From contig JBAZIZ010000001.1 of NCBI GenBank assembly GCA_041651535.1, positions 96,368 through 160,367 of the forward strand: 64,000 nt of DNA, given 5' to 3'. The DNA is from Patescibacteria group bacterium. GTDB taxonomy: Bacteria > Patescibacteriota > Patescibacteriia > Magasanikbacterales > UBA922. The translations under genes and the position numbers were made by a program. Below the pieces are notes generated by a model that saw only the letters and a program-made list of their open reading frames with translations, was not told where the DNA came from and made no database searches. This document shows, one piece after another, positions 11,605-30,900 of the stretch; position 1 is the first letter of the stretch, and each line of letters begins with the position of its first letter.

Positions 11605-13287
11605 TTAAACCAACTCTCTTTTTATTTTTTCAACAAGATCATCGGTCTTAAATACATAAGGTAAAGAAAATTTAATATTGAGCTTTTTATCATCTTCTAT
11701 AATTTTTTTAATTATATTTATAGCTTCATCATAATAATTAAAAATAATATCACCATTTTTGATGGTCAATGAAATATTATTTTTTTCTGCTATCACTTTT
11801 AAAGTAAATAAAATATAATAATGAGCATAATCTAAAAAACCATAATCATTAAAATATTTTTCTAATTCTTCTTCTTTGTTATTTGCTAATAATGTTTTTA
11901 TTTTTGAACGAAATTCTTTTATTTTTTCTTCAATTTTTTTATATAAAAGATAAGGCAATAATACATAATTTCCATTCATTCTTTGTTCATCAAAAATATC
12001 ATTATAAAAATCACCAAAGATTTCTTGTTTCTTATTTTTTGCTGAACCCGGTTTATCAACATAAAAAGACAGCATAGCCTGACCTATCCTCTCAGCATCA
12101 ATCTTTTTATCTGCATTAACCTCTTTGTCTCTAAATTCATATTTTTTTCTTTCATAAAAAAAACCCATTCTCTCTAATTCTTTTTGAATTTTAATTTGAA
12201 TTAAATCATTAGACATTATATCCCTATTTTTAACAGGATTTTGAGTATTAGTAAATCTAGCAATTTCTTGTCCAATATTTCTATCTTTTTTCACTTCATA
12301 AATCCTTAATAATAAATATATGTCATTTATTTTATCTTTTAAATTATTTTTGAATGCATTATATAAAGAATGTGTAGTTTGTCCACCATTTACTATTTGA
12401 AAATTTTCTAATTCAATCAATGGACTATCAGAATTATTATGTGTAAAACTATCACAAATAGCTGTTATACCATTATTGTAATAAAAAAACTTGTAATTAC
12501 TTTCACTTTTAATTGAATCATAAATTTGTTTGTTAATTTTAGTATTAGCACGTAAATACACTCTTACATTTTCATTAAAAACATTTTCATTTAATTCTTC
12601 CTTTTCATTTAAAATTGACTTAAGAAAATTCAATGCATTAACTTCTGCTATTAAAGCCCTTATATTACCAGTTGATTCTTCAAAATAATTTTTACCTTTC
12701 AATTGCATCTTAATATCTACTTGTGCTATATTTTTTTTAACAATAGAATCAATTATTTCAGGTAAAGAAATAGATATAAATTTTGCTCTAAATTTTTCTT
12801 CTAATATTTTAACCGCGTCTTTTTTATTATTATCATTTATAGTATTACTAAAATTCGAAATAAAATATATATTAGTTTTACTATATCCATTTTCAAAAGC
12901 ATTCCAAATTTCATTAATAGCTTCTTTCATTTTATAATTTGCTTTGTTATAATAATTTTTATCTTTATTCCAAATAGCTTCCAATTTTAAAATAAAATCA
13001 CTAATTTCTTTTTCTTTAATTCCATCTTTACGATTCGCTGTTTCGAAAATATCAGTGTGTTTGAATTGAAATAAGTTAATAGTTTTCTTATTTTCATCAA
13101 TAAAATAAGCATCTATACTTAAATCATTTTGACCATCAGTGATTTGTTCTAAAGGATTATTAATTTCTGGAAAAAATTTTTCTAATATCATAACCATAAA
13201 AGCATATGGTAATGAATCTAGTTTATTTTCTCTTTTAAAAAATTCTGTTTCTTTTCTAATTAAAGAAAAATCTTGATAAGTAATCAT
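11605..13287 (-). CDS. AIPR-like abortive-infection phage-resistance protein
   Basis: N-terminal ...ITDGQNDLSIDAYFID... resembles the AIPR DGxxDxGIDA region; 560 aa; sits in a restriction-modification neighbourhood. Confidence 0.45.
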   Translation of the reverse strand: MITYQDFSLIRKETEFFKRENKLDSLPYAFMVMILEKFFPEINNPLEQITDGQNDLSIDAYFIDENKKTINLFQFKHTDIFETANRKDGIKEKEISDFILKLEAIWNKDKNYYNKANYKMKEAINEIWNAFENGYSKTNIYFISNFSNTINDNNKKDAVKILEEKFRAKFISISLPEIIDSIVKKNIAQVDIKMQLKGKNYFEESTGNIRALIAEVNALNFLKSILNEKEELNENVFNENVRVYLRANTKINKQIYDSIKSESNYKFFYYNNGITAICDSFTHNNSDSPLIELENFQIVNGGQTTHSLYNAFKNNLKDKINDIYLLLRIYEVKKDRNIGQEIARFTNTQNPVKNRDIMSNDLIQIKIQKELERMGFFYERKKYEFRDKEVNADKKIDAERIGQAMLSFYVDKPGSAKNKKQEIFGDFYNDIFDEQRMNGNYVLLPYLLYKKIEEKIKEFRSKIKTLLANNKEEELEKYFNDYGFLDYAHYYILFTLKVIAEKNNISLTIKNGDIIFNYYDEAINIIKKIIEDDKKLNIKFSLPYVFKTDDLVEKIKRELV

Positions 13288-13317: not shown

Positions 13318-14379
13318 TTATTTAATCTTTTTATTTTTAATCAATATCCTGGCATAAGGAACATTTACAACACCATTTTCAACCATATATAAATCCCCGT
13401 TTACAGCAGCCCTCTTTTGAACTTCTTTTCTATATTTTCGATGATCTTCTTTGTATGGTCTGACCCCAATTTCTATTCCTGAATTAGATATACCTAAACC
13501 TATTATTTCAAACTGCTCCGGGTTATATTTATGTAAAAAAGTAATTGGAACTCCCATCGCTCCTTTATAATCTACCGGAATATCTGCTGTTTTATCTACA
13601 TTTATAGCATCATAATTATCATATTTCGGATAATCTTTTTCATTTCCTTTATAAGTTTTATAAAGAATTAAATCTTCATGTCTTTTTTTATGATCTAAAT
13701 TTGTAAACCAAATTGTACTTGCCACAAAAGCATATTTTACACCATCTTCAATTTTATGATATTTTTCATAAGTATTAGGAACTCTAAACCAAATATTTCT
13801 TCCATCAAGACTATGACCCAACCAAAGTTTATTTTCTTTTATAAATTTAAAAATTTCTTTATAAGTAATTGCATTTTGATTTCCGATAATTATAAACTTT
13901 TTATCATATTCCATCAGTTGAGCCACGTATTCCCTAAAAAGTGAAAAAGGTGGGTTTGTGACAACAATATCGGCTTGCTTAAGCAGATTAATACATTCTT
14001 CACTTCTAAAATCACCATCATTTTTCAAATGTTTAATGCCTATCTCTTTAAGATTTGGAACTTTGTCTCCGTTTTTATCACCTGTATATTCCAAATAAAT
14101 TGCTTTTTCAGAATTATTTTGACTAAAAAGATTTACATCTTGATTTTTATAACAAGTAGTAATTAATTTTTTCAAACCCAAATTTTCAAAATTATAAGAA
14201 AAATAATGAAAAAAATTACTAACTCGCGGATCATCACAATTACAAAAAACAGTTTTTCCTTTGAAATGCTCTTTATAATGACCTAATTCTTTTTCTATAT
14301 CCGAAAGCTGAGTATAAAACTCATCTTTTTTTGCTTTATTTGCTTTACGTAAATTTTGATTTCCTTGTTTTTTAACCAT
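13318..14379 (-). CDS. putative N6-adenine (or N4-cytosine) DNA methyltransferase with NPPF motif
   Basis: IVVTNPPFSLF (motif IV) and N-terminal DEFYTQ (motif X-like); motif I not clearly recognisable. Confidence 0.5.
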   Translation of the reverse strand: MVKKQGNQNLRKANKAKKDEFYTQLSDIEKELGHYKEHFKGKTVFCNCDDPRVSNFFHYFSYNFENLGLKKLITTCYKNQDVNLFSQNNSEKAIYLEYTGDKNGDKVPNLKEIGIKHLKNDGDFRSEECINLLKQADIVVTNPPFSLFREYVAQLMEYDKKFIIIGNQNAITYKEIFKFIKENKLWLGHSLDGRNIWFRVPNTYEKYHKIEDGVKYAFVASTIWFTNLDHKKRHEDLILYKTYKGNEKDYPKYDNYDAINVDKTADIPVDYKGAMGVPITFLHKYNPEQFEIIGLGISNSGIEIGVRPYKEDHRKYRKEVQKRAAVNGDLYMVENGVVNVPYARILIKNKKIK

Positions 14380-14955: not shown

Positions 14956-16152
14956 TCATATTTTTAAAGCCCTTCTTTTATCTTTTTTTGTTATTTTTAA
15001 ATTATTAAATATTATTTTATCTAAACCATCTTTATTATCTATAATGGAATGTTTACGCTTACTATCTTTAATTTTTTTTAATCTATCAAGATTAACACCC
15101 AACATTCTATCCACTATTAATTTGAACTGCATATCAAAAGAAAAAATATAATTAAATTTACCATCATTAGATATAAAAGATGATTGGTAAATATAAAATA
15201 ACGTACCAATAGCCTTTTTACAAAACATTAAATTTTCTAAATTTAATCTTAATTTATCATGAACTATCAAATTTCTAATATGATAAAAATATAAAATATT
15301 ATTTCTTAATATTTTTAAATTTTCTTCTTTATAAGAATAATATTCTTCTCTAATATATTTATCTACTAACCTTCTAAACTTTATATTTTTTTTAAAAATA
15401 TTAAACTTAGAAAGTTTATTATTGCTTTTTAAATTATAATATATAAAATAATTCTCTAATGATGTAATAATTTTTCTTATACATTCATCAGGATTATAAT
15501 AAAAATATTCTGTCATTGCATCTATAAGATCTTTAATATAAGTAACGTTATAATTACCATCGTCATTTGAAGGAGGAAATCCAGGTACTGATAATGGCCA
15601 TAATACTGCGTAAATTCCTCCCAAATCATCCACAACAAACACTTCACTAATATCAAATTGCGAAATAGTTTTTACTATTATATGACCTTCATTATACTTT
15701 CTGTTTAATATTTCCTTATTTATTCTGGGTAATGTTTCACTTATATATCCAACTATAAATTGAGATGGGTTTTTTTTAGTTAATTCTTTAGAAATATAAT
15801 TATTATTTTTAAAATCACAAAAATGTTTTTTAATATCTTCTAATAATTTTTTCGAAATTATCTTATTAAAATTAACATATATTTTATTACCATTTTGAAC
15901 AACATGAAGCGGATAATCGTCAATATTAAAATTATCAACTATAGAAGGCAGTATTATAGTATATTTTATCAAAACTTCTATTTTATCCTCATCATCTATA
16001 TATTCTTGCCCTACTATGTAACTTTCATGTTTTGGTTTTTTTACAACAGACTTATTTTGAGAAATAAAAATTTTTTGTTTTTTATCCATACAACATTTTT
16101 TATATTTTTTACCACTACCACATTGGCAAGGATCGTTTCTACCAATTTTCAT
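14956..16152 (-). CDS. SEC-C zinc-finger motif protein with C-terminal Rx4H (HEPN/Abi_2-like) motif
   Basis: N-terminal RNDPCQCGSGKKYKKCC matches the SecA C-terminal metal-binding motif; C-terminal ...YHIRNLIVHDKLRL... Confidence 0.5.
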   Translation of the reverse strand: MKIGRNDPCQCGSGKKYKKCCMDKKQKIFISQNKSVVKKPKHESYIVGQEYIDDEDKIEVLIKYTIILPSIVDNFNIDDYPLHVVQNGNKIYVNFNKIISKKLLEDIKKHFCDFKNNNYISKELTKKNPSQFIVGYISETLPRINKEILNRKYNEGHIIVKTISQFDISEVFVVDDLGGIYAVLWPLSVPGFPPSNDDGNYNVTYIKDLIDAMTEYFYYNPDECIRKIITSLENYFIYYNLKSNNKLSKFNIFKKNIKFRRLVDKYIREEYYSYKEENLKILRNNILYFYHIRNLIVHDKLRLNLENLMFCKKAIGTLFYIYQSSFISNDGKFNYIFSFDMQFKLIVDRMLGVNLDRLKKIKDSKRKHSIIDNKDGLDKIIFNNLKITKKDKRRALKI

Positions 16153-16440: not shown

Positions 16441-17235
16441 TTATTTATGTGGTTTACAAAAATCAAACATACACCAAAAAGATATATTTGCCAATTCGCT
16501 ATTATTAAAAGGAAAACTATCTTTATCTTCTTTGAAGCAACACTTTTTTGAACTTTGTGGCCAAAAAAGATTATGAACACCCCCAACAAGAACAGGAAAA
16601 TAGTTACTGTTTTCTTTATCTAAATAAGCAAAGAGTAATATCAAAGAACCAAACTGCATAACAATTTTATAATTTTTATTATAATCTTCTATATTAAAAT
16701 CTTTTTCATCCCAAATTAAAGCTGTCTGACCTTGGATCCAATAAAATTTTTTAGTTGGGTTATGTTGTGTTCCTAATACAAAATAATTATTATTAGGTAT
16801 TTTATTTTTTAAAAATAAAAGATCTTTTTTATTTATTTCTAAAAAGTTATCTATATCACTTGAATAGTTTAACATTGATGCTGTCTTTATAAACCAACGA
16901 GCAATAACTTCTCGTTCTTTTAGGGTGAGAGAACTGATGTCTTTCTTATTTTTTATTAATATCTTTAATAAAGGTTTAACTTCTGTTTCTAAAAGACTCA
17001 TCCAACCATTATTACACTTTTCACACACAGCTTTACATTTTAGATCTTTCAAATAATGTTCTCTTTTTTTTGATTTTATTTTCTTTTTTTTAAGACAAAA
17101 TCTTGTCGGGGATATTAATTCCTTTTCAATATTTAATTCTTTTTGTAACCATTGTGGAAAAACATGTTCATTTGAAAATTTAATATCTTCATCATCTTCT
17201 CTAGATTTTCCACAAAAAATACATTTTTTTATCAT
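16441..17235 (-). CDS. putative HNH-family endonuclease
   Basis: CIFCGK...SNEHVFPQWL...CKAVCEKCNNGW: two Cys pairs flanking a His. Confidence 0.45.
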   Translation of the reverse strand: MIKKCIFCGKSREDDEDIKFSNEHVFPQWLQKELNIEKELISPTRFCLKKKKIKSKKREHYLKDLKCKAVCEKCNNGWMSLLETEVKPLLKILIKNKKDISSLTLKEREVIARWFIKTASMLNYSSDIDNFLEINKKDLLFLKNKIPNNNYFVLGTQHNPTKKFYWIQGQTALIWDEKDFNIEDYNKNYKIVMQFGSLILLFAYLDKENSNYFPVLVGGVHNLFWPQSSKKCCFKEDKDSFPFNNSELANISFWCMFDFCKPHK

Positions 17236-17236
17236 A

Positions 17237-18046
17237 TTACATTAAAATAGACAAAGAGTATTGTGGCCAATTATTATCCTTATTTTCTACAATACACATA
17301 CCTGATGAAATTTTTATTGACAAAGAAAGTAATATAATATTTTTCAAAAAAATAATTATTTCATTTAATAATCTAATTAAAAAATCATTTACATTTTCAA
17401 ATTCTTCACCATTGTGATATATCCGTTGTGAAATTACTTCTTGATTTTTCTGTTTATAAATTATATTACTTACATTTTCTAAACGACCACGATGTATACT
17501 ATCTCTTAAAAAGACTATATAAGAAATCCAAGATATATTATTCTCTATATATTTTTTTAAATTTTGTGCTTTATTATTCAAATCTAAAGATAAATTATTA
17601 TCTATGCTATCTAACACAACTTTTCCACTTTTTTTATTTTTTTTGTGCCACCCATTTAAACTAAACCCTAATAATGGATTGAGGCTTTTTGCTAATGAGT
17701 CTAAAGCAGCTTTTATCTGATTTAACATACCATCAATTTCACTTATTAAATCAATTGGATTTAAAGACATGTCTATTGTGTTAGAACTAGACAAACATTC
17801 TTTTTTAAAATCTTCTAATATTTCTTTTTCTTGCAAATTATATTTTCGTAAATGATTATTAGCTTTTAATAGACTGTGTGCAACACTCTTGATATGATTA
17901 AAATATTCTTCGCTATCTTTTTTTGTTTTAAACGAAAAAATATCTAAATTTAAACACATAACTATATTAAAAGTATTAGACATAATTTTTTTATCTACAT
18001 CATCTTTCATTTCAAAAAGCTTTGTTAAAACAATATCTTCTCCCAT
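17237..18046 (-). CDS. hypothetical protein
   Basis: 269-aa ORF directly upstream of the HNH gene on the same strand; no recognisable motif. Confidence 0.5.
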   Translation of the reverse strand: MGEDIVLTKLFEMKDDVDKKIMSNTFNIVMCLNLDIFSFKTKKDSEEYFNHIKSVAHSLLKANNHLRKYNLQEKEILEDFKKECLSSSNTIDMSLNPIDLISEIDGMLNQIKAALDSLAKSLNPLLGFSLNGWHKKNKKSGKVVLDSIDNNLSLDLNNKAQNLKKYIENNISWISYIVFLRDSIHRGRLENVSNIIYKQKNQEVISQRIYHNGEEFENVNDFLIRLLNEIIIFLKNIILLSLSIKISSGMCIVENKDNNWPQYSLSILM

Positions 18047-18300
18047 AAAATTTTACAAAATTATAATATTAATATTTTATATATATTTAATATAACTCTT
18101 TTAAATACTTGCGTCAATTATGAATTTGAATTTTACTGATGTCGGGGGGTCAAATTTTATACACAAGTAAATTTACCTAAAACTAGCCTAAAAAAAGACT
18201 TCTAAAATTTGTAAATTCGGAAACTATTTTTTTTATATCTATACTTAATTTATAAGAATGTAATCATTTATATTCTTTTTTAAAAATTAATTTATCTAAT

Positions 18301-19638
18301 ATGAAAAAAGATAAACAACTCAAAATTGAGTATATTACTGTCGAGGAATTAAAATCATACGAACAAAACCCTCGTCTTTGGTCTGAAGATGCGACAAAAC
18401 AACTTAAAGAAAGTATTAAACGCTTTGGAGTTGTCGACCCTTTAATTGTAAATTCTGCACCTGACAGAAAAAACATAGTTCTTGGTGGTAATTTTAGATT
18501 ACTTATATTAAAAGAAATGGGTATTAAAATTATACCAATTGTATATATAAATATAACTGATACTAAAAAAGAAAAGGAGCTAGTTATTCGATTAAATAAA
18601 AACATAGGAACATGGGACTATAATCTCTTAAAAGAGTTTGATGAAGGTATTTTGTCTGACATAGGTTTTAATAGTGAAGAATTAGATGAAATATTTGATA
18701 TTGAATCAGAGCCTGAAAAATTTGATCTACAAAAAGAATTAGAGAAATTAAATATAAAAAATATAGAAATGAAAAAAGGACAAATCTGGCAACTTGATAA
18801 ATGTCGAATAATGATTGGAGATTCAACGATCAGAAAAGATATAGAAAAACTTATGAGTGATGAAAAAGCTGATATGTGTTTAACAGATCCACCATATATA
18901 CTTGATTATCTAAAAGGTAAAAAGAAAAATGGTAAACCCACTGAAGGTTTTGGTTACAAAAGAGATCGTAAATATTTAGAAACAGATATTTTACCTGATG
19001 ATTTTACAGAGAAATGGATATCCAATATATCTAAAATACAAAAAGAAAGTTTTAGTATTATATGTTATGAAAATTGGAAGAATTTACGAATCATTTGGAA
19101 TGAAATGGAAAAATACTGGAAAATAAAAAATATGATTGTTTGGCATTTACCTAATAGAACACAAGGATTTGCAGCTAAATATAAATTTTTTAGTAAACAT
19201 GATATTGCAATGGTTGGAGTTTCTAAAAAACACTCTTGTGAATTAAATACGACGAATGAAGAAGAATTACTTGAAGAAGAATATAGAACTGCTCTTTTTG
19301 CTATTTCAGGAAAACCACATTGGGAAGGCTATAAAAAAGGTAAAAAATACACACCAACTGATTTTATCGAATACAAGGCTAGTGATGAAAAAAGTTCAGG
19401 ACAAGGAATAATATTTGGTACAAAACCATTAGAAATATTAATTCCCTACATAAAAGTATTAACCAAAAGAAATGATCTAATTATCGAACCATTTGGTGGA
19501 AGTGGTAGTACACTGATAGCTTCATATAAAATGAAAAGACGTTGTTATTTAATGGAAAAGTCCCCTATCTATGCTGAAGTGATTAGAAATAGATGGGAAA
19601 AATTTTCTGGCAAAAAAGCTAAATTAATTAAAAATTAA
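18301..19638 (+). CDS. ParB-like nuclease domain fused to beta-class DNA methyltransferase (DPPY)
   Basis: N-terminal ParB/Srx-like region (IEYITVEELKSYEQNPR..VDPLIVN); motif IV CLTDPPYILDY followed by C-terminal motif I IIEPFGGSGST (beta-class order). Confidence 0.8.
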   Translation: MKKDKQLKIEYITVEELKSYEQNPRLWSEDATKQLKESIKRFGVVDPLIVNSAPDRKNIVLGGNFRLLILKEMGIKIIPIVYINITDTKKEKELVIRLNKNIGTWDYNLLKEFDEGILSDIGFNSEELDEIFDIESEPEKFDLQKELEKLNIKNIEMKKGQIWQLDKCRIMIGDSTIRKDIEKLMSDEKADMCLTDPPYILDYLKGKKKNGKPTEGFGYKRDRKYLETDILPDDFTEKWISNISKIQKESFSIICYENWKNLRIIWNEMEKYWKIKNMIVWHLPNRTQGFAAKYKFFSKHDIAMVGVSKKHSCELNTTNEEELLEEEYRTALFAISGKPHWEGYKKGKKYTPTDFIEYKASDEKSSGQGIIFGTKPLEILIPYIKVLTKRNDLIIEPFGGSGSTLIASYKMKRRCYLMEKSPIYAEVIRNRWEKFSGKKAKLIKN

Positions 19639-19642
19639 AAAT

Positions 19643-20029
19643 ATGAATCAAAAAAAGAAAAAAGAATTAATTAAATTAGTTCAAGAAAACCCAATTATTG
19701 AACTAGCATGTCGTAAAATTGGTATAGCTAGATCTACTTTTTACAGATGGAAATTTGAAGATAAAAAATTTTCTTTAGATATAGAAAAAGCTAGAGAAGA
19801 AAGTAAAGAAGTAGTTAGTGATCTAGCCGAATCACAGCTTATAACTTTAATTAAAGATGGAAAAATAAGAGCAGTAATGTTTTGGCTTAAAAGTCATCAT
19901 AAAGATTATGCAACAAAAGTAGAACTAAAAGGAAAAGTAAAATTAGCTACTGATGAATTATCAGAAGAACAAAAAATAAATGTTGAAAAAGCACTTCAAT
20001 TATATGGTCTTACTCCTAATAAAAAATAA
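19643..20029 (+). CDS. putative phage terminase small subunit (HTH)
   Basis: 128 aa; HTH ELACRKIGIARSTFYRWK; immediately upstream of and overlapping the large terminase gene. Confidence 0.45.
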   Translation: MNQKKKKELIKLVQENPIIELACRKIGIARSTFYRWKFEDKKFSLDIEKAREESKEVVSDLAESQLITLIKDGKIRAVMFWLKSHHKDYATKVELKGKVKLATDELSEEQKINVEKALQLYGLTPNKK

Positions 20030-20033
20030 TAAT

Positions 20034-21470
20034 ATGGCAATATACAATGAAATAATCAATGATAGAATAACAAGAGTGGCTATATCCAGAACAAGTCATA
20101 AATGGTTTTTTGCTACTTATTTTAATCATTATATAACTTATAAGGCTGCTAAATTTCATCATGAAATGTTTGATATAAGTGAAAATGAAAATATTAATCA
20201 AGTAGCAATGGTGGCTTTTAGAGGTTCTGGCAAATCTACTATTTTTACTTTATCATATCCACTATGGGCAATAACTGGAAAACAAAGAAAAAAGTTTGTA
20301 GTTATTTTAGCCAGAACACAAAGACAAGCAAAACAGTTACTAAATAATATAAAAAAAGAATTAGAGTCTAACGAATTACTACGTAATGATCTTGGCCCTT
20401 TTGAAGATCAATCTGATGAATGGGGTTCTTATGCTTTACTTTTACCTTGGTATAACGCAAAAATAATATCTGTATCAATGGAACAAACAATACGTGGAAT
20501 GAGACATATGCAGTATAGGCCTGATCTAATTATTTGTGATGATGTGGAAGATCTTGATTCTGTAAAAACAAAAGAAGGGAGAGATAAAGTAAAAAAATGG
20601 ATTACTGGTGAAGTTATACCTGCTGGAGATAAAAATACAAGAATTATCTTTATAGGAAATCTTTTACACGAAGACTGCTTATTAATAAATATTATAAATA
20701 AAATAAAAGAAAAAAAAATAGATGGAATATATAAATTTATACCAATTGTTGATAATAATGAAAACATAATGTGGCCAGATAAATTTAAAAACATGGATGA
20801 GATTAAAAAAGAAAAAAATAAACTATCTAATAAAATATCTTGGCTAAGGGAATATATGTTAAAAATTGTACCTGAAGAAAATCAGGTTATTCACAGAGAA
20901 TGGATAAAGTATTATGACGAGTTACCTACTAAAAAAAATATTCATTATAGACAAACGGTAATAGGTGTTGATCTTGCAATATCACAAAAAAATTCAGCTG
21001 ATTATACAGCAATGGTTTGTATGCAAGTTCATGGACGTAATGAAAATTTAAAAATATACATATTACCAAATCCAATTAACAAAAGAATGACTCATCATGA
21101 AACACTAGAAACAATAAAAAAACTCTATGCAACCTTATCAACCAATGGACATCTCTTATCAAATATATATATCGAAGATGTTGGTTATCAAAAATCAGTA
21201 GTACAAGAACTTGATAGGTTTAGAGTCCCAGCAGAAGGAGTTTCTGTTTCTGGTACTGATAAAAGAACAAGACTTACCACAGTAAGTCATCTTATACAAA
21301 ATGGTGCAGTTATATTTCCTAGAAAAGGATGCGAATTACTAATTGACCAATTAGTTCATTTTGGCGTTGAAAAATATGATGATTTAGTTGATGCATTTAC
21401 TATTGCTTTAAATAAAGTAATACAGGATGATAATAGAGGTTATTTAGCTTCTGATTTTCTTTTGTTTTAA
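20034..21470 (+). CDS. phage terminase large subunit (Terminase_6/PBSX-like); ORF-track start 19980 overlaps terS, so the Met at 20034 (MAIYNE...) is the likelier start
   Basis: Walker A-like AFRGSGKST; Walker B LIICDDVEDL; C-terminal RNaseH-like nuclease region with conserved acidic residues. Confidence 0.7.
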   Translation: MAIYNEIINDRITRVAISRTSHKWFFATYFNHYITYKAAKFHHEMFDISENENINQVAMVAFRGSGKSTIFTLSYPLWAITGKQRKKFVVILARTQRQAKQLLNNIKKELESNELLRNDLGPFEDQSDEWGSYALLLPWYNAKIISVSMEQTIRGMRHMQYRPDLIICDDVEDLDSVKTKEGRDKVKKWITGEVIPAGDKNTRIIFIGNLLHEDCLLINIINKIKEKKIDGIYKFIPIVDNNENIMWPDKFKNMDEIKKEKNKLSNKISWLREYMLKIVPEENQVIHREWIKYYDELPTKKNIHYRQTVIGVDLAISQKNSADYTAMVCMQVHGRNENLKIYILPNPINKRMTHHETLETIKKLYATLSTNGHLLSNIYIEDVGYQKSVVQELDRFRVPAEGVSVSGTDKRTRLTTVSHLIQNGAVIFPRKGCELLIDQLVHFGVEKYDDLVDAFTIALNKVIQDDNRGYLASDFLLF

Positions 21471-22585
21471 TCACAATTCGGGTTTAAAGTCCTAGTTGGA
21501 TAAGCTATTAAAAGTTCTTCTAATGAGTTGAAAACTTTTAAATTACTAGGACTTAATTCTTGCCAACTTTCACAAGAAGCTGGGTAATAATATTTAGTTC
21601 TCCAATGTGAAGAAGTATAATATTTATTATCACTTTGTGTTTCTAAAATTGATTCATTTTCTGTTTCATTATTATTTGATTCAACATTAGATGCTTGAGT
21701 TGTGTCACCATCACATGTATCAGATGACCAAAGACCTCTTAGATTATCTCTTGCTTCTTTTTCTGCTGTTTTAAATTCTGCTTGATATTTATAAGGTAAA
21801 TTATATGTATATTCATGAGCAAAACCTTGTTCAATCATATATTTATTATAAAATAAACCGTCTTCACGATAAACATATGCTAATAATCTTCCATAAATAT
21901 CAAATTCACCTTGAGTAGGATCAGTTTCTATACGAACTTTTGTCCCTGATAAAAGTTCTTTAGCTTTATTAGATGCTTCAACTCCAAAACACTGAACAGG
22001 TTTTCTAGGGTCAACTGTTTCAGGAGTATCTAATCCTATAAGACGCAAAGTGATAATATCACCGTCTTTTAAAATTTTAATGGTATCACCATCAGTTACT
22101 TTTTCAACTTGATAATAAATATATTTTGAATCATTTGTTTCTTCTTCTTTTGTATTTTCAACATATTCTTCTGTATTATTTTTTTCTGTAATACCTTCTT
22201 CTGTCTTTAATTCAATTATATTTTCATCATCATTCTGAACAATATTTTCTGAAGTTTCATTTTCTGCTATTTCATTTACTAATTCTTCTCTGTTTTTTTC
22301 TTTCAAATTATTAGCAACAAATACTTCACCTTGATTACTATTTTCAACAGGTGGTGCGGTTATTCCCATTATTATAAAAGTTGCAATAATTAGAAAAGAG
22401 AATAAAAGGAGTATGTTTTTTCTTTTAGGAACCCTTTTTAAGGTATCATAAAAAATATTTGGCTTTATTAAACCTGCTACCAAAAAAAATACTGAAAATA
22501 TAAATAGAAAAAAAGAAAAAATAAACATATTATATATAAAAATAAAAAACCAATTATAATCAGCTGGTTTTTTGTTTTTAAACAC
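21467..22585 (-). CDS. membrane-anchored SNase/thermonuclease-like nuclease
   Basis: N-terminal TM helix; VTDGDTIKIL...RLIGLDTPET...YGRLLAYVY staphylococcal-nuclease motifs. Confidence 0.7.
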   Translation of the reverse strand: MFKNKKPADYNWFFIFIYNMFIFSFFLFIFSVFFLVAGLIKPNIFYDTLKRVPKRKNILLLFSFLIIATFIIMGITAPPVENSNQGEVFVANNLKEKNREELVNEIAENETSENIVQNDDENIIELKTEEGITEKNNTEEYVENTKEEETNDSKYIYYQVEKVTDGDTIKILKDGDIITLRLIGLDTPETVDPRKPVQCFGVEASNKAKELLSGTKVRIETDPTQGEFDIYGRLLAYVYREDGLFYNKYMIEQGFAHEYTYNLPYKYQAEFKTAEKEARDNLRGLWSSDTCDGDTTQASNVESNNNETENESILETQSDNKYYTSSHWRTKYYYPASCESWQELSPSNLKVFNSLEELLIAYPTRTLNPNCD

Positions 22586-22637
22586 AAAACCCCAGACCAG
22601 CCGGACCTTGCGGTCCTATATTTGTTTCCAAATATAA

Positions 22638-22682
22638 CTCGTTGAAAAGTCGCTGATCTTGGGGATCAGTATTTTCAACGAG
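22638..22682. other. nested palindrome CTCGTTGAAAA-[CTGATC ttgggg GATCAG]-TTTTCAACGAG; candidate att core or operator for the adjacent serine recombinase
   Basis: perfect 11-bp outer inverted repeat enclosing a 6-bp inner one; in the divergent intergenic region upstream of the recombinase; further small palindromes nearby (CTCATAAA..TTTATGAG, GACGCGTC). Confidence 0.3.
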
Positions 22683-22913
22683 GTTTCATACCATGCTCAT
22701 AAAAATTTATGAGTTTAGGTATCTGGTATTATCCAGTGTTAATTGTAATTACATTTTAACTTAAAAAAGCTAAAATGTCCAATTTAATAATAGCTTAGAT
22801 ATTGATTTTTGCGAAGTCTAGTTACCAACAGTTTACCTACTTCCCTACTGGACGACAGGAACGGGACGCGTCATTAATGTAAGTAATAAGATAATAATTT
22901 TTAATTTAATATC

Positions 22914-24206
22914 ATGGAACAAGAACAAGACAATCTTCAAGAAAAAGTCCGTTATTGCCTATATGCTAGAAAAAGTACAGAGCAAGATGAACTTCAAGCA
23001 TTATCAATAGATTCTCAAATCAAAGAAATGCTTGATATGGCTAATAAGGAAGGCATGAATATAGTAGAGATAAGAAAAGAAAGCCATTCGGCTAAAGATT
23101 CAGGGCAAAGACCAGTATTCAATCAACTACTCATGGATATAAAGAAAGGAATGTTTAATGGTATTTTATGTTGGGCACCTGATAGATTAAGTAGAAATGC
23201 AGGAGACTTAGGTTCAACAGTAGATTTAATAGATCAAGGTCATTTGTTAGAAATACGAACACACAGTCAAAAATTTACCAATAATCCAAATGAAAAATTT
23301 CTTCTCATGATCTTAGGTAGTCAAGCTAAATTAGAAAATGACCATAAAGGCGAAAATGTAAAACGTGGACTTAGAGCAAAATGTGAACAAGGCTGGCGAC
23401 CTGGCTTACCTCCTCTTGGATATTGGCATGATAAATATGCTAACAAAGGTCAAAAGAAAGTTTTTATAGATACTGAAAGAGCTCCTCATATAAAAAAGAT
23501 GTTTGAGCTAGTGGCTTATGAAAATTATAGTGGTAGAGATTTAGATATATGGCTAAGAAAAAATAATGTAAAAACTAAAAAAGGTAAAAACTTTACTTTA
23601 AGTATGGTTTATAGAATATTAGCTGAACGATTCTATTATGGAGATTTTGAATATCCTGTTGGTAGTGGAAAAATATATAAAGGATCACATGAACCTATAA
23701 TATCAAAAGAGCTTTTTATGAAAACAAGAGAAAACTTAACAGTAGCACCAAGAAGGCATCCTGGAACAATAGATTATGCTTTTACTAGATTATTTTATTG
23801 TGGAAAATGTGGTTCTGGAATATCAGCTGAAGAAAAATTTAAACATCAAAAAAACGGTACAGTTCATAGGTATGTCTATTATCACTGCACCAGAGGTAAG
23901 GACAGAAACTGTAAAGAAAAAGCAATTCGTGAAGAAGATTTGATCAAGCAAATGGTTAACCTGATTGATAAGATCGAAGTGGACCAATTAAAAATTGGCG
24001 AAAAAGTGAAAGCTGAAATGGATAGATTTAGGAAGTTTAGTTCTATGCTAGGACAAACCGCTGAACAGCTCAAAAATGTTAACCTAGATGCGAGAAACTA
24101 TGCCAAGTATATTCTTTTGGAAGGAAGTAAAGAGGAAAAAAGAGAGTTATTGGAGTGTATGAGAGGAAAAGTAGTATTGAAGAATAAGGAATTATTTGTT
24201 AAATAA
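22914..24206 (+). CDS. large serine recombinase (phage-type integrase)
   Basis: N-terminal resolvase domain with catalytic YARKSTEQD; recombinase domain; Cys-rich zinc ribbon CGKCGSG...YYHCTRGKDRNC. Confidence 0.85.
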   Translation: MEQEQDNLQEKVRYCLYARKSTEQDELQALSIDSQIKEMLDMANKEGMNIVEIRKESHSAKDSGQRPVFNQLLMDIKKGMFNGILCWAPDRLSRNAGDLGSTVDLIDQGHLLEIRTHSQKFTNNPNEKFLLMILGSQAKLENDHKGENVKRGLRAKCEQGWRPGLPPLGYWHDKYANKGQKKVFIDTERAPHIKKMFELVAYENYSGRDLDIWLRKNNVKTKKGKNFTLSMVYRILAERFYYGDFEYPVGSGKIYKGSHEPIISKELFMKTRENLTVAPRRHPGTIDYAFTRLFYCGKCGSGISAEEKFKHQKNGTVHRYVYYHCTRGKDRNCKEKAIREEDLIKQMVNLIDKIEVDQLKIGEKVKAEMDRFRKFSSMLGQTAEQLKNVNLDARNYAKYILLEGSKEEKRELLECMRGKVVLKNKELFVK

Positions 24207-24208
24207 TT

Positions 24209-24952
24209 CTATTTTTTAATTTTAGACTTTATAAAATCTAAAAATTTTTGATTAACCTGTAATTTTTGCTTACCATTTTCAAGTGTTAAATTAATTCCAG
24301 AAATATTTTTAAATAAAATTAAGGCGAATCTGATTACTTTTTTTGCATTACCTTTATCTTGCTTATTTCCAATATCGAAAGAATGAATATATTTATTTCT
24401 AATATTTCTAATTTCTTCTAACATTCTCGCGTTGTCTTCATCAATAATTTTAACTAAGTTCAATATTTTTATTCTTCTTTCTTGATCTACTTTACCAAAA
24501 AGAATTTTTTGTTCATTTTTATCAAGTATATTTCCACCCATTGAAAATTTATTCATTTCCCAAACAACATAAGACATCATTTCAGCAGAAAGTCCTGCAA
24601 GTGTAATACATGAAAGATATTCACCTAGAGTAAAATATTTTTTTGCTAAAAGTAAAGGTTGAATGATTCTATTGGTAATATCTTCATAATTTTGACTAGG
24701 AGTAATACCTAAATGAGTTTCGTCATCTGTAATTTCACAATATCGTCTTATTTCATCTTTTTTTATTTTAGAAAAATCTTTACCCAAAAAATCTTCCAGC
24801 ATTGAAATAGAATGATCCTGACGTTGTTTCAAATCTTTCTTTTTTGGTTTTGTTAATAACCAATTTTTATCATCTTCAGAAAAAATAGGACCGAAGCGAT
24901 TTAAATTTAGAAGAATAGTATTTCCTTGTGACATATCAACTACTTTCCTCAA
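24209..24952 (-). CDS. hypothetical protein with HEPN-like Rx4H motif; third gene of the MTase-helicase operon
   Basis: EEIRNIRNKYIHSFD near the C-terminus; start overlaps the MTase stop by 17 nt. Confidence 0.45.
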   Translation of the reverse strand: MRKVVDMSQGNTILLNLNRFGPIFSEDDKNWLLTKPKKKDLKQRQDHSISMLEDFLGKDFSKIKKDEIRRYCEITDDETHLGITPSQNYEDITNRIIQPLLLAKKYFTLGEYLSCITLAGLSAEMMSYVVWEMNKFSMGGNILDKNEQKILFGKVDQERRIKILNLVKIIDEDNARMLEEIRNIRNKYIHSFDIGNKQDKGNAKKVIRFALILFKNISGINLTLENGKQKLQVNQKFLDFIKSKIKK

Positions 24953-27900
24953 TAACTTTTATCTCCTCATCAGTTAAATCATAAAGCTTATAAACTAACT
25001 GATCAATTTCTTCTTCTAATTTAGAAGTGTCAGCATCTGAATTTTCTTTTCTTGTTTTTAGTAATGTGTCAACTAAATTTATAATCGGTCTTTGTTCTTC
25101 TAATGAAATACTAGGAATTGGTAAATTATTTATGGCGGGCATTGTGATTTGCCACCCAACGTAAGTTTTTGTATATAAGAAATTAATAACTTTAGAATTA
25201 AGTACCGCTAATAAATATTTTAATGAAAATTTTTGATTTTTCTGCAAACAAATATAAGCAGTATTTAATAAATAAAACTGATCATTATCAATAGTACAAA
25301 CGAAAGAATTACTTCTACGTGGAAAAATTATTTTCTCTTTTGCCAAAAACAGCCGTTCTTCCCTAGGTCTATGTAATTTTTTTGTATATTTAATATACCT
25401 ATTTTCTTTCTTTTTATCATATTCAATTAGATATTTTTTTATATCTCGTCCATCTAAGACCCTTTTGTAATTTTCATCAACTTTTTCATTAGCAAAAACA
25501 TCTTCCTTTTTTTGACCAGAGTATATAATACCTTGCTGAACCTCAATTATATCTGATAAGGTTGTCGAACTAGAATTAATTTTATTTATTATACAATTTA
25601 TATTGGCTGAATTTTTAGTTAAAATGATGTCATTGATATCTGACTGTTTAATTTCTGTAATTTTTTTATTTAAATCTAATAAAATTTGGATAGAGGAATC
25701 TTTTTTAGATTTATTCTTTAAAACAATCACCGAAGTGTCAACGGCCGCTTCAAAAACACGGGAAGAAAAGTTGGAGATAGTGCAAATTTGTGTTTTTTCT
25801 AATAAATATTTTCTAATATGTCTATATTCAGAATTTGTATATAAAGATTCTGGTAGAATGAAAGTTAGAATTCCATCAGTCTTTAATAATTTTTGACCTT
25901 TTTCTAAAAATAGTGTAAATAAATTAAATCTACCTTTACCTGTATCAAATAAAATAGAAAAACTTTTTTTGTTTTTAGATGTGATTTTTTTAACACTTAC
26001 GTATGGAGGATTGCCAATTACGACATCAAAACCACTTATACCAAACATAAATTTTGGATCAAAAAATTCTGCCACCTGTTCATTATCAAATGGATGATAC
26101 GACTGCAACTGTTCAAGTTTTTTGGATTTACCAAGTAAATTACCTTGATTTTTTGTTAATAAAAGCTTGTTAAACTTTTCTTTTAGGGCTGTCTTAACCT
26201 GCGGACTGCGAGCGTTAAAATATTTATCCCTAATATCCTGCATTTGTTTTTCCAAATCATCCGCTTCATCAAACATCTGTTTTTGTTTAGTATCATCCAA
26301 AGGAATTAGACTATTTGCACAAACAAATTTAAAATCAAGGTTTGGCAATGGTTTAATTTTGTTACTATCAACTTCTTCATCGACAACAATTGACAACCAT
26401 GCTCTAAGTCGTGAAATTTCCACTGCCATTGGCTCTATATCCACCCCATGCAAATTATTTTTGATAATCTCTAGTTTCTTTTTATAAGAATCAAATGTGG
26501 CATCCAATCTTTCATAAGTCTGCAAAAGCAGAGACAGCATACCCATAGGAAAAGCTCCGGATCCGCAAGCAGGATCAAGTATTTTTATTTCATCAAGGGC
26601 TTTTAGTATGTCATATTTATATGGTTTTAATTTATCACGATAATTTCTTTGCTGATCTCTCCAATCATGCTCTTTACTATCCAACAAATTATCTATTAAT
26701 TCAAATGACTTACCTTCATCACCAAGAGTATTTTTCAAATATTGCCTGAGACTCTCGCGAGACATATAATCAACTATTTCGCGAGGAGTATAAAAAGCAC
26801 CTTTGGCTTTTCTTGCCTGTTCTCCGGTTTCTTCTGTTTGTTCAGCTAACAAATTTTCAAAAATACGCCCTAACATCTCTGGGTCAATCGCCACTTGTTG
26901 AAATGTACTAGTACTTTCATCAGTTGTAAAATTGTAATGATGAAGAAAATCAACGAGTCGGTCAAAATAATCAGCAGGAAATGTAAGCTTTGGATCACCA
27001 TGCTTATCTCCAAGTTTTTCTTCAAATAAACCACCGTTCAAAAATGGAGTAATATTATCAATACTTTTCTCTCTATCCTCAATCGGAGTATTAAAAACTT
27101 TAAAAAATAAAGTTTCCAATTTTTCTCTGTAATATTCTGTTGAATTTTTTCCGCTAGTGTTAAAATAATCAATTTTATCATTAATAATACCTTTTTTATC
27201 TAAAAACCAACAAAATACTAATCTACCAATTAAACGATTGACGAAGTAAGAAGCGTGCTTATCGTCAAAAACTTTTTCCTTAATTAAATGTTGTTTTAAT
27301 TCTACAAAGAATGAGCTTACTTCCTTGTAGAATCGTTTGTTGAGAGGTTCAATGTCAAAGCTTTGCCATAAAATTTCATGGACTTGAGCTTTGTTTGTAA
27401 AATCAAATTCTTGTAGCCATTTTGAAAATATTTCTTGTTGCGTAATAGTTAATTCTCCTGAAAGTTCCAAAGTACGAATAACATAATTTTTACTTAATAC
27501 TACTATTACTTTGTCAGATCTTTCTGGAATAACAAAATCAATCCCTACATTTAGATTTCCATAAAAAGGCTCGTCCTCAAAATTCGGAGTAAGAGCCACA
27601 AGCCAACTGATAATTGATTTTTTAGGTTTCTTAACCCAATATACTTTTAAATCTATTTTTTCCAAATTATCATTTGATATTTTGTATGAAGCTCTACGGT
27701 CAGCAAAACCTTCCGCTTCCATAAACCAGCCAGCGTTTGATCTGATTTTACCTTGAGAATCTGTAAATAATTTCCATTCATTTTTGGATTCAATACCAAA
27801 TAATGATACCAAATTATTAATTACATTTTGAGTATTTGAAAAACTCTTTTCCTGTGACAGAATTTTTATTGATTCGTTTAATTCCTGAATTTTTTCTGGT

Positions 27901-27974
27901 AGTTTATTCATTGTCTTTGACATAATACAAAACTTGTTTTGAGCTGGTAGATTGAACAGGTCTATCTTTTCCAT
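24936..27974 (-). CDS. large (~1000 aa) gamma-class N6-adenine DNA methyltransferase (Eco57I / type IIG / PglX-like architecture)
   Basis: FYTPREIVDYM (motif X), ILDPACGSGAFPMG (motif I), VIGNPPYVSVKK (motif IV); ~370-aa N-terminal region and ~350-aa C-terminal putative target-recognition region. Confidence 0.8.
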   Translation of the reverse strand: MEKIDLFNLPAQNKFCIMSKTMNKLPEKIQELNESIKILSQEKSFSNTQNVINNLVSLFGIESKNEWKLFTDSQGKIRSNAGWFMEAEGFADRRASYKISNDNLEKIDLKVYWVKKPKKSIISWLVALTPNFEDEPFYGNLNVGIDFVIPERSDKVIVVLSKNYVIRTLELSGELTITQQEIFSKWLQEFDFTNKAQVHEILWQSFDIEPLNKRFYKEVSSFFVELKQHLIKEKVFDDKHASYFVNRLIGRLVFCWFLDKKGIINDKIDYFNTSGKNSTEYYREKLETLFFKVFNTPIEDREKSIDNITPFLNGGLFEEKLGDKHGDPKLTFPADYFDRLVDFLHHYNFTTDESTSTFQQVAIDPEMLGRIFENLLAEQTEETGEQARKAKGAFYTPREIVDYMSRESLRQYLKNTLGDEGKSFELIDNLLDSKEHDWRDQQRNYRDKLKPYKYDILKALDEIKILDPACGSGAFPMGMLSLLLQTYERLDATFDSYKKKLEIIKNNLHGVDIEPMAVEISRLRAWLSIVVDEEVDSNKIKPLPNLDFKFVCANSLIPLDDTKQKQMFDEADDLEKQMQDIRDKYFNARSPQVKTALKEKFNKLLLTKNQGNLLGKSKKLEQLQSYHPFDNEQVAEFFDPKFMFGISGFDVVIGNPPYVSVKKITSKNKKSFSILFDTGKGRFNLFTLFLEKGQKLLKTDGILTFILPESLYTNSEYRHIRKYLLEKTQICTISNFSSRVFEAAVDTSVIVLKNKSKKDSSIQILLDLNKKITEIKQSDINDIILTKNSANINCIINKINSSSTTLSDIIEVQQGIIYSGQKKEDVFANEKVDENYKRVLDGRDIKKYLIEYDKKKENRYIKYTKKLHRPREERLFLAKEKIIFPRRSNSFVCTIDNDQFYLLNTAYICLQKNQKFSLKYLLAVLNSKVINFLYTKTYVGWQITMPAINNLPIPSISLEEQRPIINLVDTLLKTRKENSDADTSKLEEEIDQLVYKLYDLTDEEIKVIEESS

Positions 27975-30900
27975 CCAAAGTCTTATAAGATAAACTGATC
28001 AATTCTTTTAATTCATCTAGGAAACCTTCGTTTGCTCTTTTTTGTTTCACAATCTTTCTGACTAGTCTTCTTATTATCTGTTGATCTATAATATTTTTTG
28101 TTTGAAAAGCCAGTCTGACTTGTTCAATATCCTCTTCCAATGTTTGACTTTCAAATAAAATTCTTAGTAATTCTGTTTGTTGAGGAAGTGGAGCACCTAT
28201 TTCATCATCCTCTGAATAAGTGGCAATGCTTTGTCTTACCTTTTCATCTATCATTTGTTTGTCCACGCTAATGTTGTCAGAAACTCTTTCATTATTATCA
28301 TCAGTTGTTCTCAACCACTCTAGAGCCTGCAAATTGGTTACAGCCTGAAAATTAGATCCGTCCCTTAACATAGAGACAAAACTATGACCAATTACTTCAT
28401 AATTTTCATCACGTAAATTATTAAAGGATAAAACATCTGGTCTTTGCTCACCGCGATGAACAGTATTTGGCATAATAGCCCATTTACCAAGTGAAATATT
28501 GTATATTTTATCTCTGTACTCTTCGGATAATTTATCATTAAGATGAAAGTTTTTTAGATCTGCTACAAAAATATCTTCTGCCAACAAGAAATCAGCTTCT
28601 CTTTCTAATTTTTCCATTGCTTCAATACGTTTTTGAATATCTTCACTATAAATATCTTTTAGATTATCAGTATATTCAATCGGATTTGCTAGCTCGTCTA
28701 GTACGGGGGAATCGGTACCGATAGTATTTTTAATCAAATTAATTTTGCCTTCTAATCTTTCAACCAGTTGTAGATACTCTTCAAGTTTTGCTTCTGGTGA
28801 AATATTGTAAATATAAACTTTGTCATATGTACTACCTAAACGATTTACACGACCATTTCTTTGAATCATTCGAACAGGGTTCCAATGCAAATCATAGTTA
28901 ACAAGAATTCCACAATCTTGAAGATTTTGACCTTCCGATAGGATGTCGGTTGAAAATAAATAATCTAATTCAGTTTCATCGTCTTTGATTTTATAATTTT
29001 TTGCTTTTGGTGCAAATCTATTTGCCGAGTTTTCGCTATCAACTCTATTTTTAGATGAAATGAATGCGGAATTTTCATTTGTAATAAATTTTGCGTATTC
29101 AGGCAATGCTTCTTTTAAATATTCTACTGTATCAGCATAAAATGAAAAAATTAAAACCTTTTTTCCTGCTGGCTGTTCTTTTTGAAGATTTTTTAATAAT
29201 TCCGCAAAAGATCTAATTTTAGAATCATCTTTACCTAAAATAGAAAGTTGTCTATCAAGAATATCTATCAATATTCTTTCTCTTCGTATATCTTCTCTCA
29301 GTGCTTCTATATTATATTTTTTATCATCAATATCATCCAATTCCATTTCTTCATCAATTTTAATATCTTCAGGATTAAAATCTTCATCACCAATACCCAA
29401 CATTTCTTCAATATTACTGAGATTTTTTAGACTAACGATTTTACCAATATCCAAACCTTTTTCAAAAACATCCAATTTTCTTTTGTAAATGTCTAGAGAA
29501 CTTCTAATCGCACTAACAGATGACTCTAATCTTTTTAAGAACATCGTTCGCAAAATCCCATAGATACTTAATTGAAGAAATAATGATTTACTTTCTCTTT
29601 CATCAAGTTTCATGGCTTTTACTTCACCTCTTGTTTTTCCATAGTATTTTGTTTGATACATCATCCATCTATAAGGAACAAATCCTAACAATAAAATTAT
29701 CTGATAAACAAAAGCGACAGCTGATAAATTTGAAAATTTTTCATCATCTACTTCTGCTTCCAAATTTTCAATTTGATCAAGAGGGTGTAAAAGTGCATTT
29801 GTGTTTTTAACAATCTTATCAATTGGTAATCTGTAAATTTTACCCAGATCCACTTCATTACTTTCTAGATTTTTAACTTCATCAGCTACTTCTTTATTAA
29901 AACCATATTTTTTAACCTCTGGAACAACAGTTGGAAAATGACTTTCTTTACCACCAATATTCAATCCGCCATATTCTTTTTCTATCCCTTGCCTTGTCCT
30001 CCTAACAACAAAAGCTCTAATAATAGGAGCCATTACTTGCTGGACATAATTTTTATCAAAACTTCCATCTCTTTTTAGATCCTGTTTTATTTTCTTTTGT
30101 AAATTTTCAATTGCTTGATAAAAAGACATTTGAACCGTCTGTTTCAACTTTTTATCAACCGATGTCACTTTTAATACATCGGCAACACCTCTAGTACCAA
30201 GTAATATTTGATTTACAATATCACCTAATTGATTGTTAATAGGAGTGGCAGTAAGTAGAAGTACGTGAGCTTTGGGGTTATTTCTTATCCATTCAATAAT
30301 TTGATCAAATCTTTTTCCTCCGCGATTTTTTAAATTATGAGATTCATCAATAACAAATAACGATACACTGGCAATATTATCAAGCTCTTTTTTTCTTTCA
30401 ATTTCATTGGGATTTTGCAATGTAATTGGCGAAAGACCCAAAACTCCTTGTATTGCCATTTCTTTTTCCCATTGAGTTTTTAAGGATTTTGGACAAATAA
30501 TTTCAACACGCTGTTGTCCAGAGTCAGTATTAAGATATTGTTTTATTACTTCAATAGCAGTATATGTTTTCCCCAAACCAACAGAATCTGCCAACATAGC
30601 AACTTTATATTTTTTCAATCTTCTAACAAGGGCATGAACATTTTTGACTTGAAAATCCAAAAGATCATATTTACCTTTGATAGTTTCATCTAAGTTTTCT
30701 TCAATCAATTCATCGCTATACAAATCATAAAGTGTTTTTATATATGTTTCATAAGGACTAAAAAGAGTATCGCCAGCTGGTGAATTTTCTAATAATTCAG
30801 TAAATTGACCATTCCATTCTTCTGTTTGAGGATCATCCCAAAATTTATCAAACCAAAATAAATGACCAACTTCTTGGGTTTTAGATTTTGGTTGAAATGT

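Follow-up and report, generated by a model that had tools for sequence, protein, structure and literature searches.

A conserved terminase and serine recombinase element of Candidate Phyla Radiation bacteria, a possible phage satellite with a LOOT RNA heading its cargo

We analyzed a stretch of 64,000 nucleotides from a Patescibacteria group bacterium (contig JBAZIZ010000001.1, positions 96,368 to 160,367), hereafter called the window. The region from 18.1 to 24.2 kb of the window is, as predicted from its genes, an intact member of a conserved element of the Candidate Phyla Radiation (CPR). Its fixed core of ~6 kb encodes a ParB-methyltransferase (MTase) fusion, the small and large terminase subunits (TerS and TerL) and a large serine recombinase (LSR). 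The initial annotation had described this region as a phage-derived module lacking structural genes and embedded among defence genes, which was borne out; all five of its open reading frames (ORFs) were found where it had placed them, with the domains it had assigned (domain and PHROG matches), and no portal, capsid or tail homologue was detected in the 64-kb window. Our literature searches found no description of the element. To our knowledge, very few phages, mobile elements and defence systems have been described in the CPR (Patescibacteria), a large share of bacterial diversity. A conserved terminase-bearing island under selection in many CPR species would be one of the main avenues of gene flow in their reduced genomes and would also mark their defence islands. 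We tentatively propose that these elements are undescribed, CPR-wide phage satellites or chromosomal "packaging engines" which use a complete terminase of their own to hijack the capsids of CPR siphophages, spreading themselves together with defence islands, and that the LOOT RNA is a dedicated regulatory RNA heading cargo cassettes here and in related recombinase islands. The gene-level finding is solid, while the mechanism is what we infer from it.

The first core gene (18301-19638, plus strand) encodes the fusion of ParB_N and N6_N4_Mtase domains (phrog_498), and it occupied a fixed position in 108 of 109 element loci. It is followed on the same strand by terS (19643-20029), which encodes a helix-turn-helix (HTH) protein of 128 aa matching PF13022 and five TerS families (phrog_309, 4102, 24579, 4044 and 1482); terS was detected in 99 of the 109 loci. 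TerL (20034-21470, plus strand) matched phrog_38 at 2.6e-87 and Terminase_6C (PF17289). Its ORF opens at 19980, and the start is most likely 20034 because the database protein has 478 aa. TerL of the window is 100% identical to a protein from a metagenome-assembled genome (MAG) of a Patescibacteria group bacterium. The Walker A (GSAKST) and Walker B (CDDVED) motifs and the acidic nuclease residues were invariant in 21 homologues, so that TerL combines the Walker A/B ATPase and RNaseH-like nuclease of a terminase, with terS directly upstream. The fourth core gene (22914-24206, plus strand) encodes the LSR of 430 aa, co-oriented with the terminase genes and detected in 88 of the 109 loci. It carries the resolvase domain with its catalytic serine, the recombinase domain and the zinc ribbon of this class (Resolvase PF00239, Recombinase PF07508, Zn_ribbon_recom PF13408). 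The catalytic serine S21 in YxRKST is invariant, with a family mean column identity of 61%. This set of domains is shared with the integrases of SPbeta (SprA/YokA), TP901-1 and A118 (best PDB sequence matches 9dxh, 3g13, 3bvp and 6dnw), and with those of conjugative transposons; the LSR of the element is however shorter and distant (E ~1e-9), and no att sites or directionality factor were identified for it. In PADLOC, TerS, TerL and the LSR had no match, and the MTase matched generic type II MTase models only.

The element is widespread in the CPR. Among 8000 scored candidates, 4056 TerL homologues passed E <= 0.001; the best 120 were 51-78% identical and, where named, came from Patescibacteria, Parcubacteria or Kuenenbacteria, many homologues lying on contigs of 100-900 kb. 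A scan of genome contigs with the single TerL protein returned no matches, while an alignment-based scan with one genome per species recovered at least 557 relatives. The best 80 of these were distributed over Paceibacterota/Parcubacteria, Woese-, Shapiro-, Levyi-, Dojka-, Falkow-, Kuenen-, Morani-, Portnoy-, Doudna-, Peri- and Gracilibacteria and Saccharimonadia. Some loci bear labels from outside the CPR (Pacearchaeota archaeon, Bacillota, Nitrospirota, "uncultured Gammaproteobacteria"), among them L067 (DAKN01000002.1), L045, L040 and many TPA records (numbers preceded by L are labels of the surveyed loci); they probably result from mis-binning or mislabelling. Two MAGs, JBAZYY01 (L014/L084) and JAFGMD01 (L017/L023), each hold two divergent copies of the module.

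The architecture was established for ~110 element loci from gene neighbourhoods and a survey with ORFs and phmmer. Almost every locus showed the order MTase (often with a second MTase), terS, terL, a gap of 0 to ~9 kb, and LSR, all on one strand; terL was present in 109/109 loci, and many loci end at contig ends. The MTase-terS-terL block was found inverted relative to the recombinase in L048, L298, L332 and L316/L317, and in L048 it was also inverted relative to a flank shared with L056. These inversions hint that the packaging block is flanked by a recombination site on each side.

The gene order points to the phages from which the core was derived. IMG/VR relatives with a TerL 35-46% identical to ours continue after terL with a portal fused to a Mu-F domain, a protease, the major head protein and tail genes. 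Complete prophages were found in Ca. Campbellbacteria (CP064977.1, 811 kb) and on a 729-kb Patescibacteria scaffold; their order is replication genes, ParB_N-N6_N4 MTase, terS, terL, portal, HK97 capsid, tail tube and tape measure. Since the prophages share the MTase-terS-terL order, what the element retains is the beginning of the CPR siphophage late operon, with an LSR under its own promoter replacing everything from the portal onwards. Such related CPR phages are candidate helpers from which capsids could come. The temperate CPR siphophages (for example CP064977.1) have a TerL 29-49% identical to that of the element and go on with portal(+Mu_F), protease, HK97 capsid, tail tube and tape measure, whereas such genes are absent from ±10 kb around the element, whose TerL belongs to a separate clade. 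The nearest TerL of an isolated phage is Mu-like and 26.6% identical, and a search of GenBank phage DNA with the 6.3-kb module gave only a 93-bp match at chance level. A split gene transfer agent with its structural genes elsewhere in the genome found no support in a search that stopped short of whole genomes: portal homologues (807 at E <= 1e-10) were fewer, and they lay mostly on contigs of roughly phage-genome size or smaller, or in complete prophages.

Several results indicate that this truncated architecture is maintained. In a neighbour-joining tree of 150 TerLs, those of the elements formed a single portal-free clade of 112 leaves, which holds all LSR-linked elements; the median identity was 0.50 within the clade and 0.37 to phage TerLs. 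For six close pairs, dN/dS was 0.01-0.14 for MTase, terS, terL and LSR, which shows strong purifying selection on each of the core genes. Neither relaxed selection nor pseudogenes nor idiosyncratic deletion end-points were observed. Homologues of 201 late or structural proteins from related phages were sought in the window and within ±10 kb of every element locus, and none was found; portal, capsid, tail and lysis genes beside the terminase were present in the phage-type relatives and not here. In 55 IMG/VR loci the LSR family adjoined MTase, terS or terL, with a recognisable terL in 36, and never structural genes.

Candidate regulatory signals accompany the operon. A weak hairpin with a T-run (18255-18281, plus strand, -6.2 kcal/mol) precedes the ATG of the MTase gene by 24 nt. 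The gene upstream is divergent, and the hairpin therefore cannot be the terminator of that gene. A hairpin with a T-run at most 120 nt upstream of the MTase start was found in 38/93 element loci as compared to 4/93 shuffled controls, and in 12 of the 23 loci where the upstream gene is divergent. These data suggest a putative leader terminator upstream of the MTase, as in phage late operons. In addition, 26 loci encode a LexA/CI-type S24 peptidase divergent from the operon, and in 19 a 73-aa XRE protein directly follows terL; neither type of repressor was recognised in the 64-kb window.

The suggestion of the initial annotation that the module is a satellite which may mobilise adjacent cargo remains the best functional guess. 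We consider it close to an even call that this is a satellite-like integrative element which would use its own terminase to gain entry to the capsids of a helper phage, and which may take neighbouring defence genes along. The element would be held quiescent by its leader terminator, joined in many relatives by a repressor of the LexA/CI or XRE type. The late phase of a related helper phage or SOS induction would allow read-through into the MTase-TerS-TerL operon. TerS and TerL would then recognise and cut the DNA of the element at a pac site and pump it into helper procapsids, and headful packaging would include the neighbouring defence genes. The MTase would pre-methylate the packaged DNA and so protect the transferred DNA, and the LSR would integrate or excise the element in the recipient.

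The known systems that come closest are the phage-inducible chromosomal islands (PICIs, including the SaPIs) and their capsid-forming variants (cf-PICIs), small islands with an integrase, a repressor and packaging-redirection genes (terS, in cf-PICIs also terL), few or no structural genes, and accessory or defence cargo. The layout is similar here, with the LSR at the 3′ end, repressors in relatives, a size below ~20 kb and no structural genes. There is precedent for the transfer of adjacent defence islands, which prophages and PICIs bring about by lateral transduction (PMC12829572). The element differs from PICIs in having a large serine recombinase in place of a tyrosine integrase, both TerS and TerL plus the ParB-MTase, and CPR hosts, and in being known from sequence alone; no pri-rep module, alpA/stl-type regulator or capsid genes were found in it, nor the capsid, portal and protease of its own that a capsid-forming PICI would have.

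A number of observations weigh against the satellite proposal. All of its functional steps are read from sequence, and the leader hairpin of the window is weak. No convincing direct or inverted att repeats were detected between 17.9 and 24.4 kb; the sites of serine integrases are not expected to form long repeats. Comparison of relatives revealed no empty sites or excision junctions, and the adjacency of terL and LSR on chromosomal contigs shows that an att site does not simply lie between these genes. Known satellites usually carry a replication module; no primase-helicase or pri-rep gene was found among the recurrent neighbours or in Pfam scans of L023, an absence that is unproven as many neighbours are of unknown function. 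The related pairs L072/L077 and L056/L060 are each at the same chromosomal locus, which fits vertical inheritance with turnover at a hotspot as well as mobility. Just one whole contig, L023 (JAFGMD010000010.1, 17,334 bp), hints at a free form; it has a direct repeat of 44 bp at its ends and is possibly circular. This contig also encodes two tandem large serine recombinases of 576 and 582 aa, reminiscent of ccrAB pairs.

These observations bear on an alternative that we judge rather unlikely, namely that the MTase-TerS-TerL-LSR module is phage-derived, domesticated and non-mobile, and kept for the use of the host. It could act against phages by occupying their portals, or by mis-cutting their concatemers or competing for them, or it could be a chromosomal packaging engine that donates flanking DNA to the capsids of any infecting phage; in either variant the LSR would act in local rearrangement and not in integration. 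The strong purifying selection on four genes, an ancient single clade across CPR lineages, the same locus with variable neighbours in related genomes and the missing att sites and replication genes all speak for it, as do the inversions of MTase-terS-terL relative to the LSR in L048, L298 and L332 and surroundings that are always rich in defence genes. It accounts less well for the two divergent copies in each of JBAZYY01 and JAFGMD01, for the mosaic, module-wise similarity among relatives that is typical of mobile elements, and for the S24 and XRE repressors typical of temperate elements; moreover, TerS and TerL match no PADLOC model.

The distance between the terL stop and the LSR start was bimodal: 40 loci have a gap of ≤216 bp, 42 have one of ≥936 bp, and no value lies between. 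Two loci that are 92% identical, L072 and L077, differ by a 1.19-kb block made of a SNase gene, a LOOT RNA and a promoter, which in L077 fills precisely the interval from the terL stop to the LSR promoter. The window and its closest relative L089 (78% identical over MTase-terL) have LOOT and LSR in common and differ in their cargo genes. By these comparisons the terL-LSR junction is a cargo hotspot. In the window it holds a cassette of promoter, LOOT, a hairpin with a U-run and a membrane-anchored SNase-family nuclease of 353 aa (21467-22528, minus strand; PADLOC "SNc+LTD"). The ORF of the nuclease opens at 22585, and alignment with the homologue of L064 places its start most likely at the ATG at 22528; from there it has an N-terminal membrane anchor like its homologues. 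Four LOOT-linked SNase cassettes were found (window, L045, L064 and L077). In other loci the cargo at the junction is varied and frequently defensive: restriction-modification systems of types I and III, DRT-like reverse transcriptases, nucleases (SNase, NucS-like and HSDR_N), and membrane-anchored proteins of the DUF4352 and tRNA_anti-like kinds. The arrangement resembles the hotspots of P4-like satellites and P2 prophages, in which a fixed site between two conserved genes holds variable anti-phage cargo that is swapped between relatives; the core genes are however unrelated, and in the element the hotspot is bounded by terL and the recombinase promoter, often with LOOT at its head.

The intergenic region between SNase and LSR was reported in the initial annotation to contain a perfect nested palindrome (22638-22682) and several smaller ones. 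The inverted repeats are real: the outer arms (22638-22648 and 22672-22682) are complementary at 11/11 positions, and the inner arms CTGATC (22653-22658) and GATCAG (22664-22669) at 6/6. They do not form one perfect palindrome, because the spacers between outer and inner arms are unequal (4 versus 2 nt); the structure is a stem interrupted by an internal loop. The repeats exceed chance by far, and with the smaller palindromes added they match, at full length (22603-22721, minus strand, model positions 1-121), the covariance model of the LOOT RNA, Rfam RF03000 (92.8 bits against a gathering score of 46.4, E = 2e-16). The palindrome is the central stem-loop of LOOT (helix 3/4) and the smaller ones are the remaining helices; all six were matched, and two of the smaller ones are capped by GNRA tetraloops. 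The ~200-nt LOOT unit of the window folds at -69 kcal/mol (z = -7.0).

For comparison among loci, a covariance model was built from the copy of the window and the Rfam structure and was then iterated; a MAFFT alignment of three copies was rejected since it was not structure-consistent. In 30 homologues, 91.3% of the cells pair, as compared to 31-38% with the partners slid, and compensatory double changes were seen at 37 of 43 pairs. G-U pairs occur in helices 1, 2, 5 and 6, which indicates that the minus strand is the functional RNA strand. Helix 3 covaries at 10/11 pairs and, unlike the other helices, is almost devoid of G-U pairs in 29 sequences. A helix that covaries is not conserved in sequence, and the stem of the palindrome differs even in the closest relative L089. 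It is for this reason an RNA stem and not the att-like or recombinase binding site that the initial annotation had proposed. We infer that LOOT acts at the RNA level, as a putative small RNA or as a leader heading the cargo transcription unit.

The likely boundaries of the LOOT transcript could also be delineated. A promoter-like site, TGGACA-17-TAAAAT (22753-22781, minus strand), is conserved upstream of LOOT in other loci; the consensus is sigma-70-like, TGGACW-17-TAAAAT, followed by AACAATT. Between LOOT and the SNase start codon, a hairpin (AAAAAACCA/UGGUUUUUU) with a U-run (22538-22580, minus strand) probably marks where the LOOT transcript ends, or else acts as an attenuator. We also observed a conserved extra 3′ hairpin, absent from the Rfam model, with the loop GGGCUUUUUGU(G)U in the window (22540-22602) and in L004, L033, L061, L086 and L097. 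Its stems covary between loci, and the Rfam family may be truncated at its 3′ end. LOOT was described as an RNA motif by Weinberg et al. (2017, PMC5737381) and appears as a metagenome-based RNA in PMC7779021, the passages on it giving no function or context. The conserved promoter, the extra hairpin with its GGGCUUUUUGU loop and the fixed place 5′ of variable cargo in LSR-bearing CPR islands are new for LOOT; they provide the first genomic context for this orphan RNA and make its function testable.

LOOT was found in 30 of 86 genome loci and in six element-type loci of IMG/VR; none was found in phage-type loci. It was always 5′ of the variable genes and on their strand, at one of three positions: antisense, 90-280 bp upstream of the LSR, as in the window; sense, 35-85 bp past the LSR stop; or antisense, directly upstream of the MTase. 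The reverse association was evaluated on JGI metagenome contigs with a LOOT-specific pattern, which catches 8 of 36 known copies and gave no false positives in the loci checked. A core-like gene was present on 48 of 120 LOOT-bearing stretches, on 28 of the 38 that reach 8 kb or more, and on 16 of the 20 with at least 3 kb on both flanks. It was mostly an LSR, often larger (510-560 aa), and TerL, TerS or MTase occurred in ~18 of the 120 stretches; an exclusive linkage of LOOT to the terminase was rejected on these counts. LOOT is thus, as far as these contigs allow one to predict, a general feature of CPR serine-recombinase islands that heads cargo operons, and the terminase module is one frequent host. 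In nine metagenome loci (L231, L178, L172, L197, L267, L235, L199, L181 and L283), LOOT heads long co-directional operons without terminase, which often end in a larger serine recombinase (510-560 aa); they resemble further mobile elements of the CPR that are as yet uncharacterised.

Upstream of the LSR gene we identified a second conserved motif (22809-22878, plus strand), ~85-90% identical to L089. It comprises TTGCGAAG, tandem GTTAYCWAC boxes at 22820-22829 and 22832-22840 with a 12-nt period, CTGGAC at 22848-22853 and GCGTCATTAAT at 22868-22878. The pattern recurs across subfamilies, with TTGCGAAG, the two tandem boxes and CTGGAC followed after 12-15 nt by TTGCGTCATTAAT; the 7-mer GCGTCAT was found in 27 of 81 regions upstream of LSR (SerRec) genes, and the GTTAYCWAC boxes in many subfamilies. 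An nhmmer search with 22800-22890 returned the closest relative only, the motif being kept as a pattern and not as a sequence. Between window and L089 it is better conserved than LOOT, whose sequence has diverged. The motif lacks the dyad symmetry expected of a serine-integrase site and looks like a candidate regulated promoter or operator of the LSR. Where LOOT lies elsewhere, the GTTAYCWAC boxes accompany it.

This last association, together with the modular junction, raises a second alternative, an integron-like platform in which the LSR and its upstream site would capture cassettes of promoter, LOOT and gene, with LOOT or the GTTAYCWAC boxes as the recombination determinant. The bimodal terL-LSR gap, the behaviour of LOOT plus gene as a discrete block (L072 versus L077), the occurrence of LOOT units (types A, B and C) on each edge of the packaging block, the near absence of G-U pairs in helix 3, the prevalence of LSR genes beside metagenome LOOT (16/20 loci with at least 3 kb on both flanks) and the occasional inversions of the packaging block (L048, L298 and L332) are all compatible with it. 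Nevertheless, we consider such a platform quite improbable. L072 and L077 differ by replacement, and on the terL side no site is duplicated, which resembles an exchange by homology between conserved flanks; LOOT, co-oriented 5′ of the cargo with its own promoter and with G-U pairs in four helices, has the features of an RNA; and serine recombinases use duplex sites with dyad symmetry, not direct repeats. Integrons proper have a tyrosine recombinase IntI, an attI site and promoterless attC cassettes, while here a serine recombinase adjoins cassettes with their own promoter and 5′ RNA.

That the palindrome itself is a DNA site, for attachment or for binding of a recombinase or regulator, is very improbable. 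Its place in a divergent intergenic region adjoining the LSR gene would suit such a site, and helix 3, being almost without G-U pairs, could be formed by both strands. Against this, the palindrome belongs to a full-length LOOT match and covaries at 10/11 pairs with no conservation of sequence; at other loci this helix follows the LSR or precedes the MTase, and its strand is in every case that of the cargo gene; and L089 differs in the stem while keeping the 22809-22878 motif.

Least probable, and in effect refuted, is the degraded prophage that the initial annotation had offered as one option, in which random deletion would have left terminase genes beside an integrase: the gene content is a subset of that of a CPR prophage and IMG/VR lists such contigs as viral, but the identical breakpoint and gene order recur in ~110 loci of a single TerL clade, all ORFs are intact under purifying selection (dN/dS as given above), and the LSR family never stands beside structural genes. 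The terminase-recombinase islands of 4-10 kb that IMG/VR lists as viral genomes (L089-L116), despite having no structural genes, are listed solely for their terminase and represent a systematic class of false positives for virus catalogues.

The embedding among defence genes was confirmed on both sides of the satellite candidate. The left flank encodes a GmrSD_N-HNH protein (10489-11571), an AIPR/Abi (Abi-alpha) protein (11605-13287), an EcoRI-type adenine MTase (13318-14379), for which no EcoRI endonuclease could be recognised, and, at 14956-16152, a protein with a SEC-C motif. Between this flank and the module, 16441-18046 encodes two further proteins, neither of which had a homologue in any related locus. 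Directly after the recombinase, the minus strand carries genes for a DUF4145/HEPN-like protein (24209-24952), a type IIG MmeI/Eco57I-like restriction-modification enzyme of 1012 aa (24936-27974) and a PLD-nuclease/SNF2 helicase fusion of 1163 aa (27904-31395), the ORF of which overlaps that of the type IIG enzyme. The type IIG enzyme and the fusion have the appearance of a two-gene system that includes DISARM/BREX-like components; the PglX and DrmMI models match the pair weakly.

Two further gene groups were observed near some relatives. A cluster of an ArsR-type HTH protein, a thioredoxin, an ArsP permease and DsbD_2 lies beside the recombinase in L001 (17014-20163) and L008 (13194-16277), two distant loci in which the clusters have opposite orientations, and copper P-type ATPases are encoded ~4.7 kb downstream in 12 loci. 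Both could be cargo or reflect a preferred neighbourhood.

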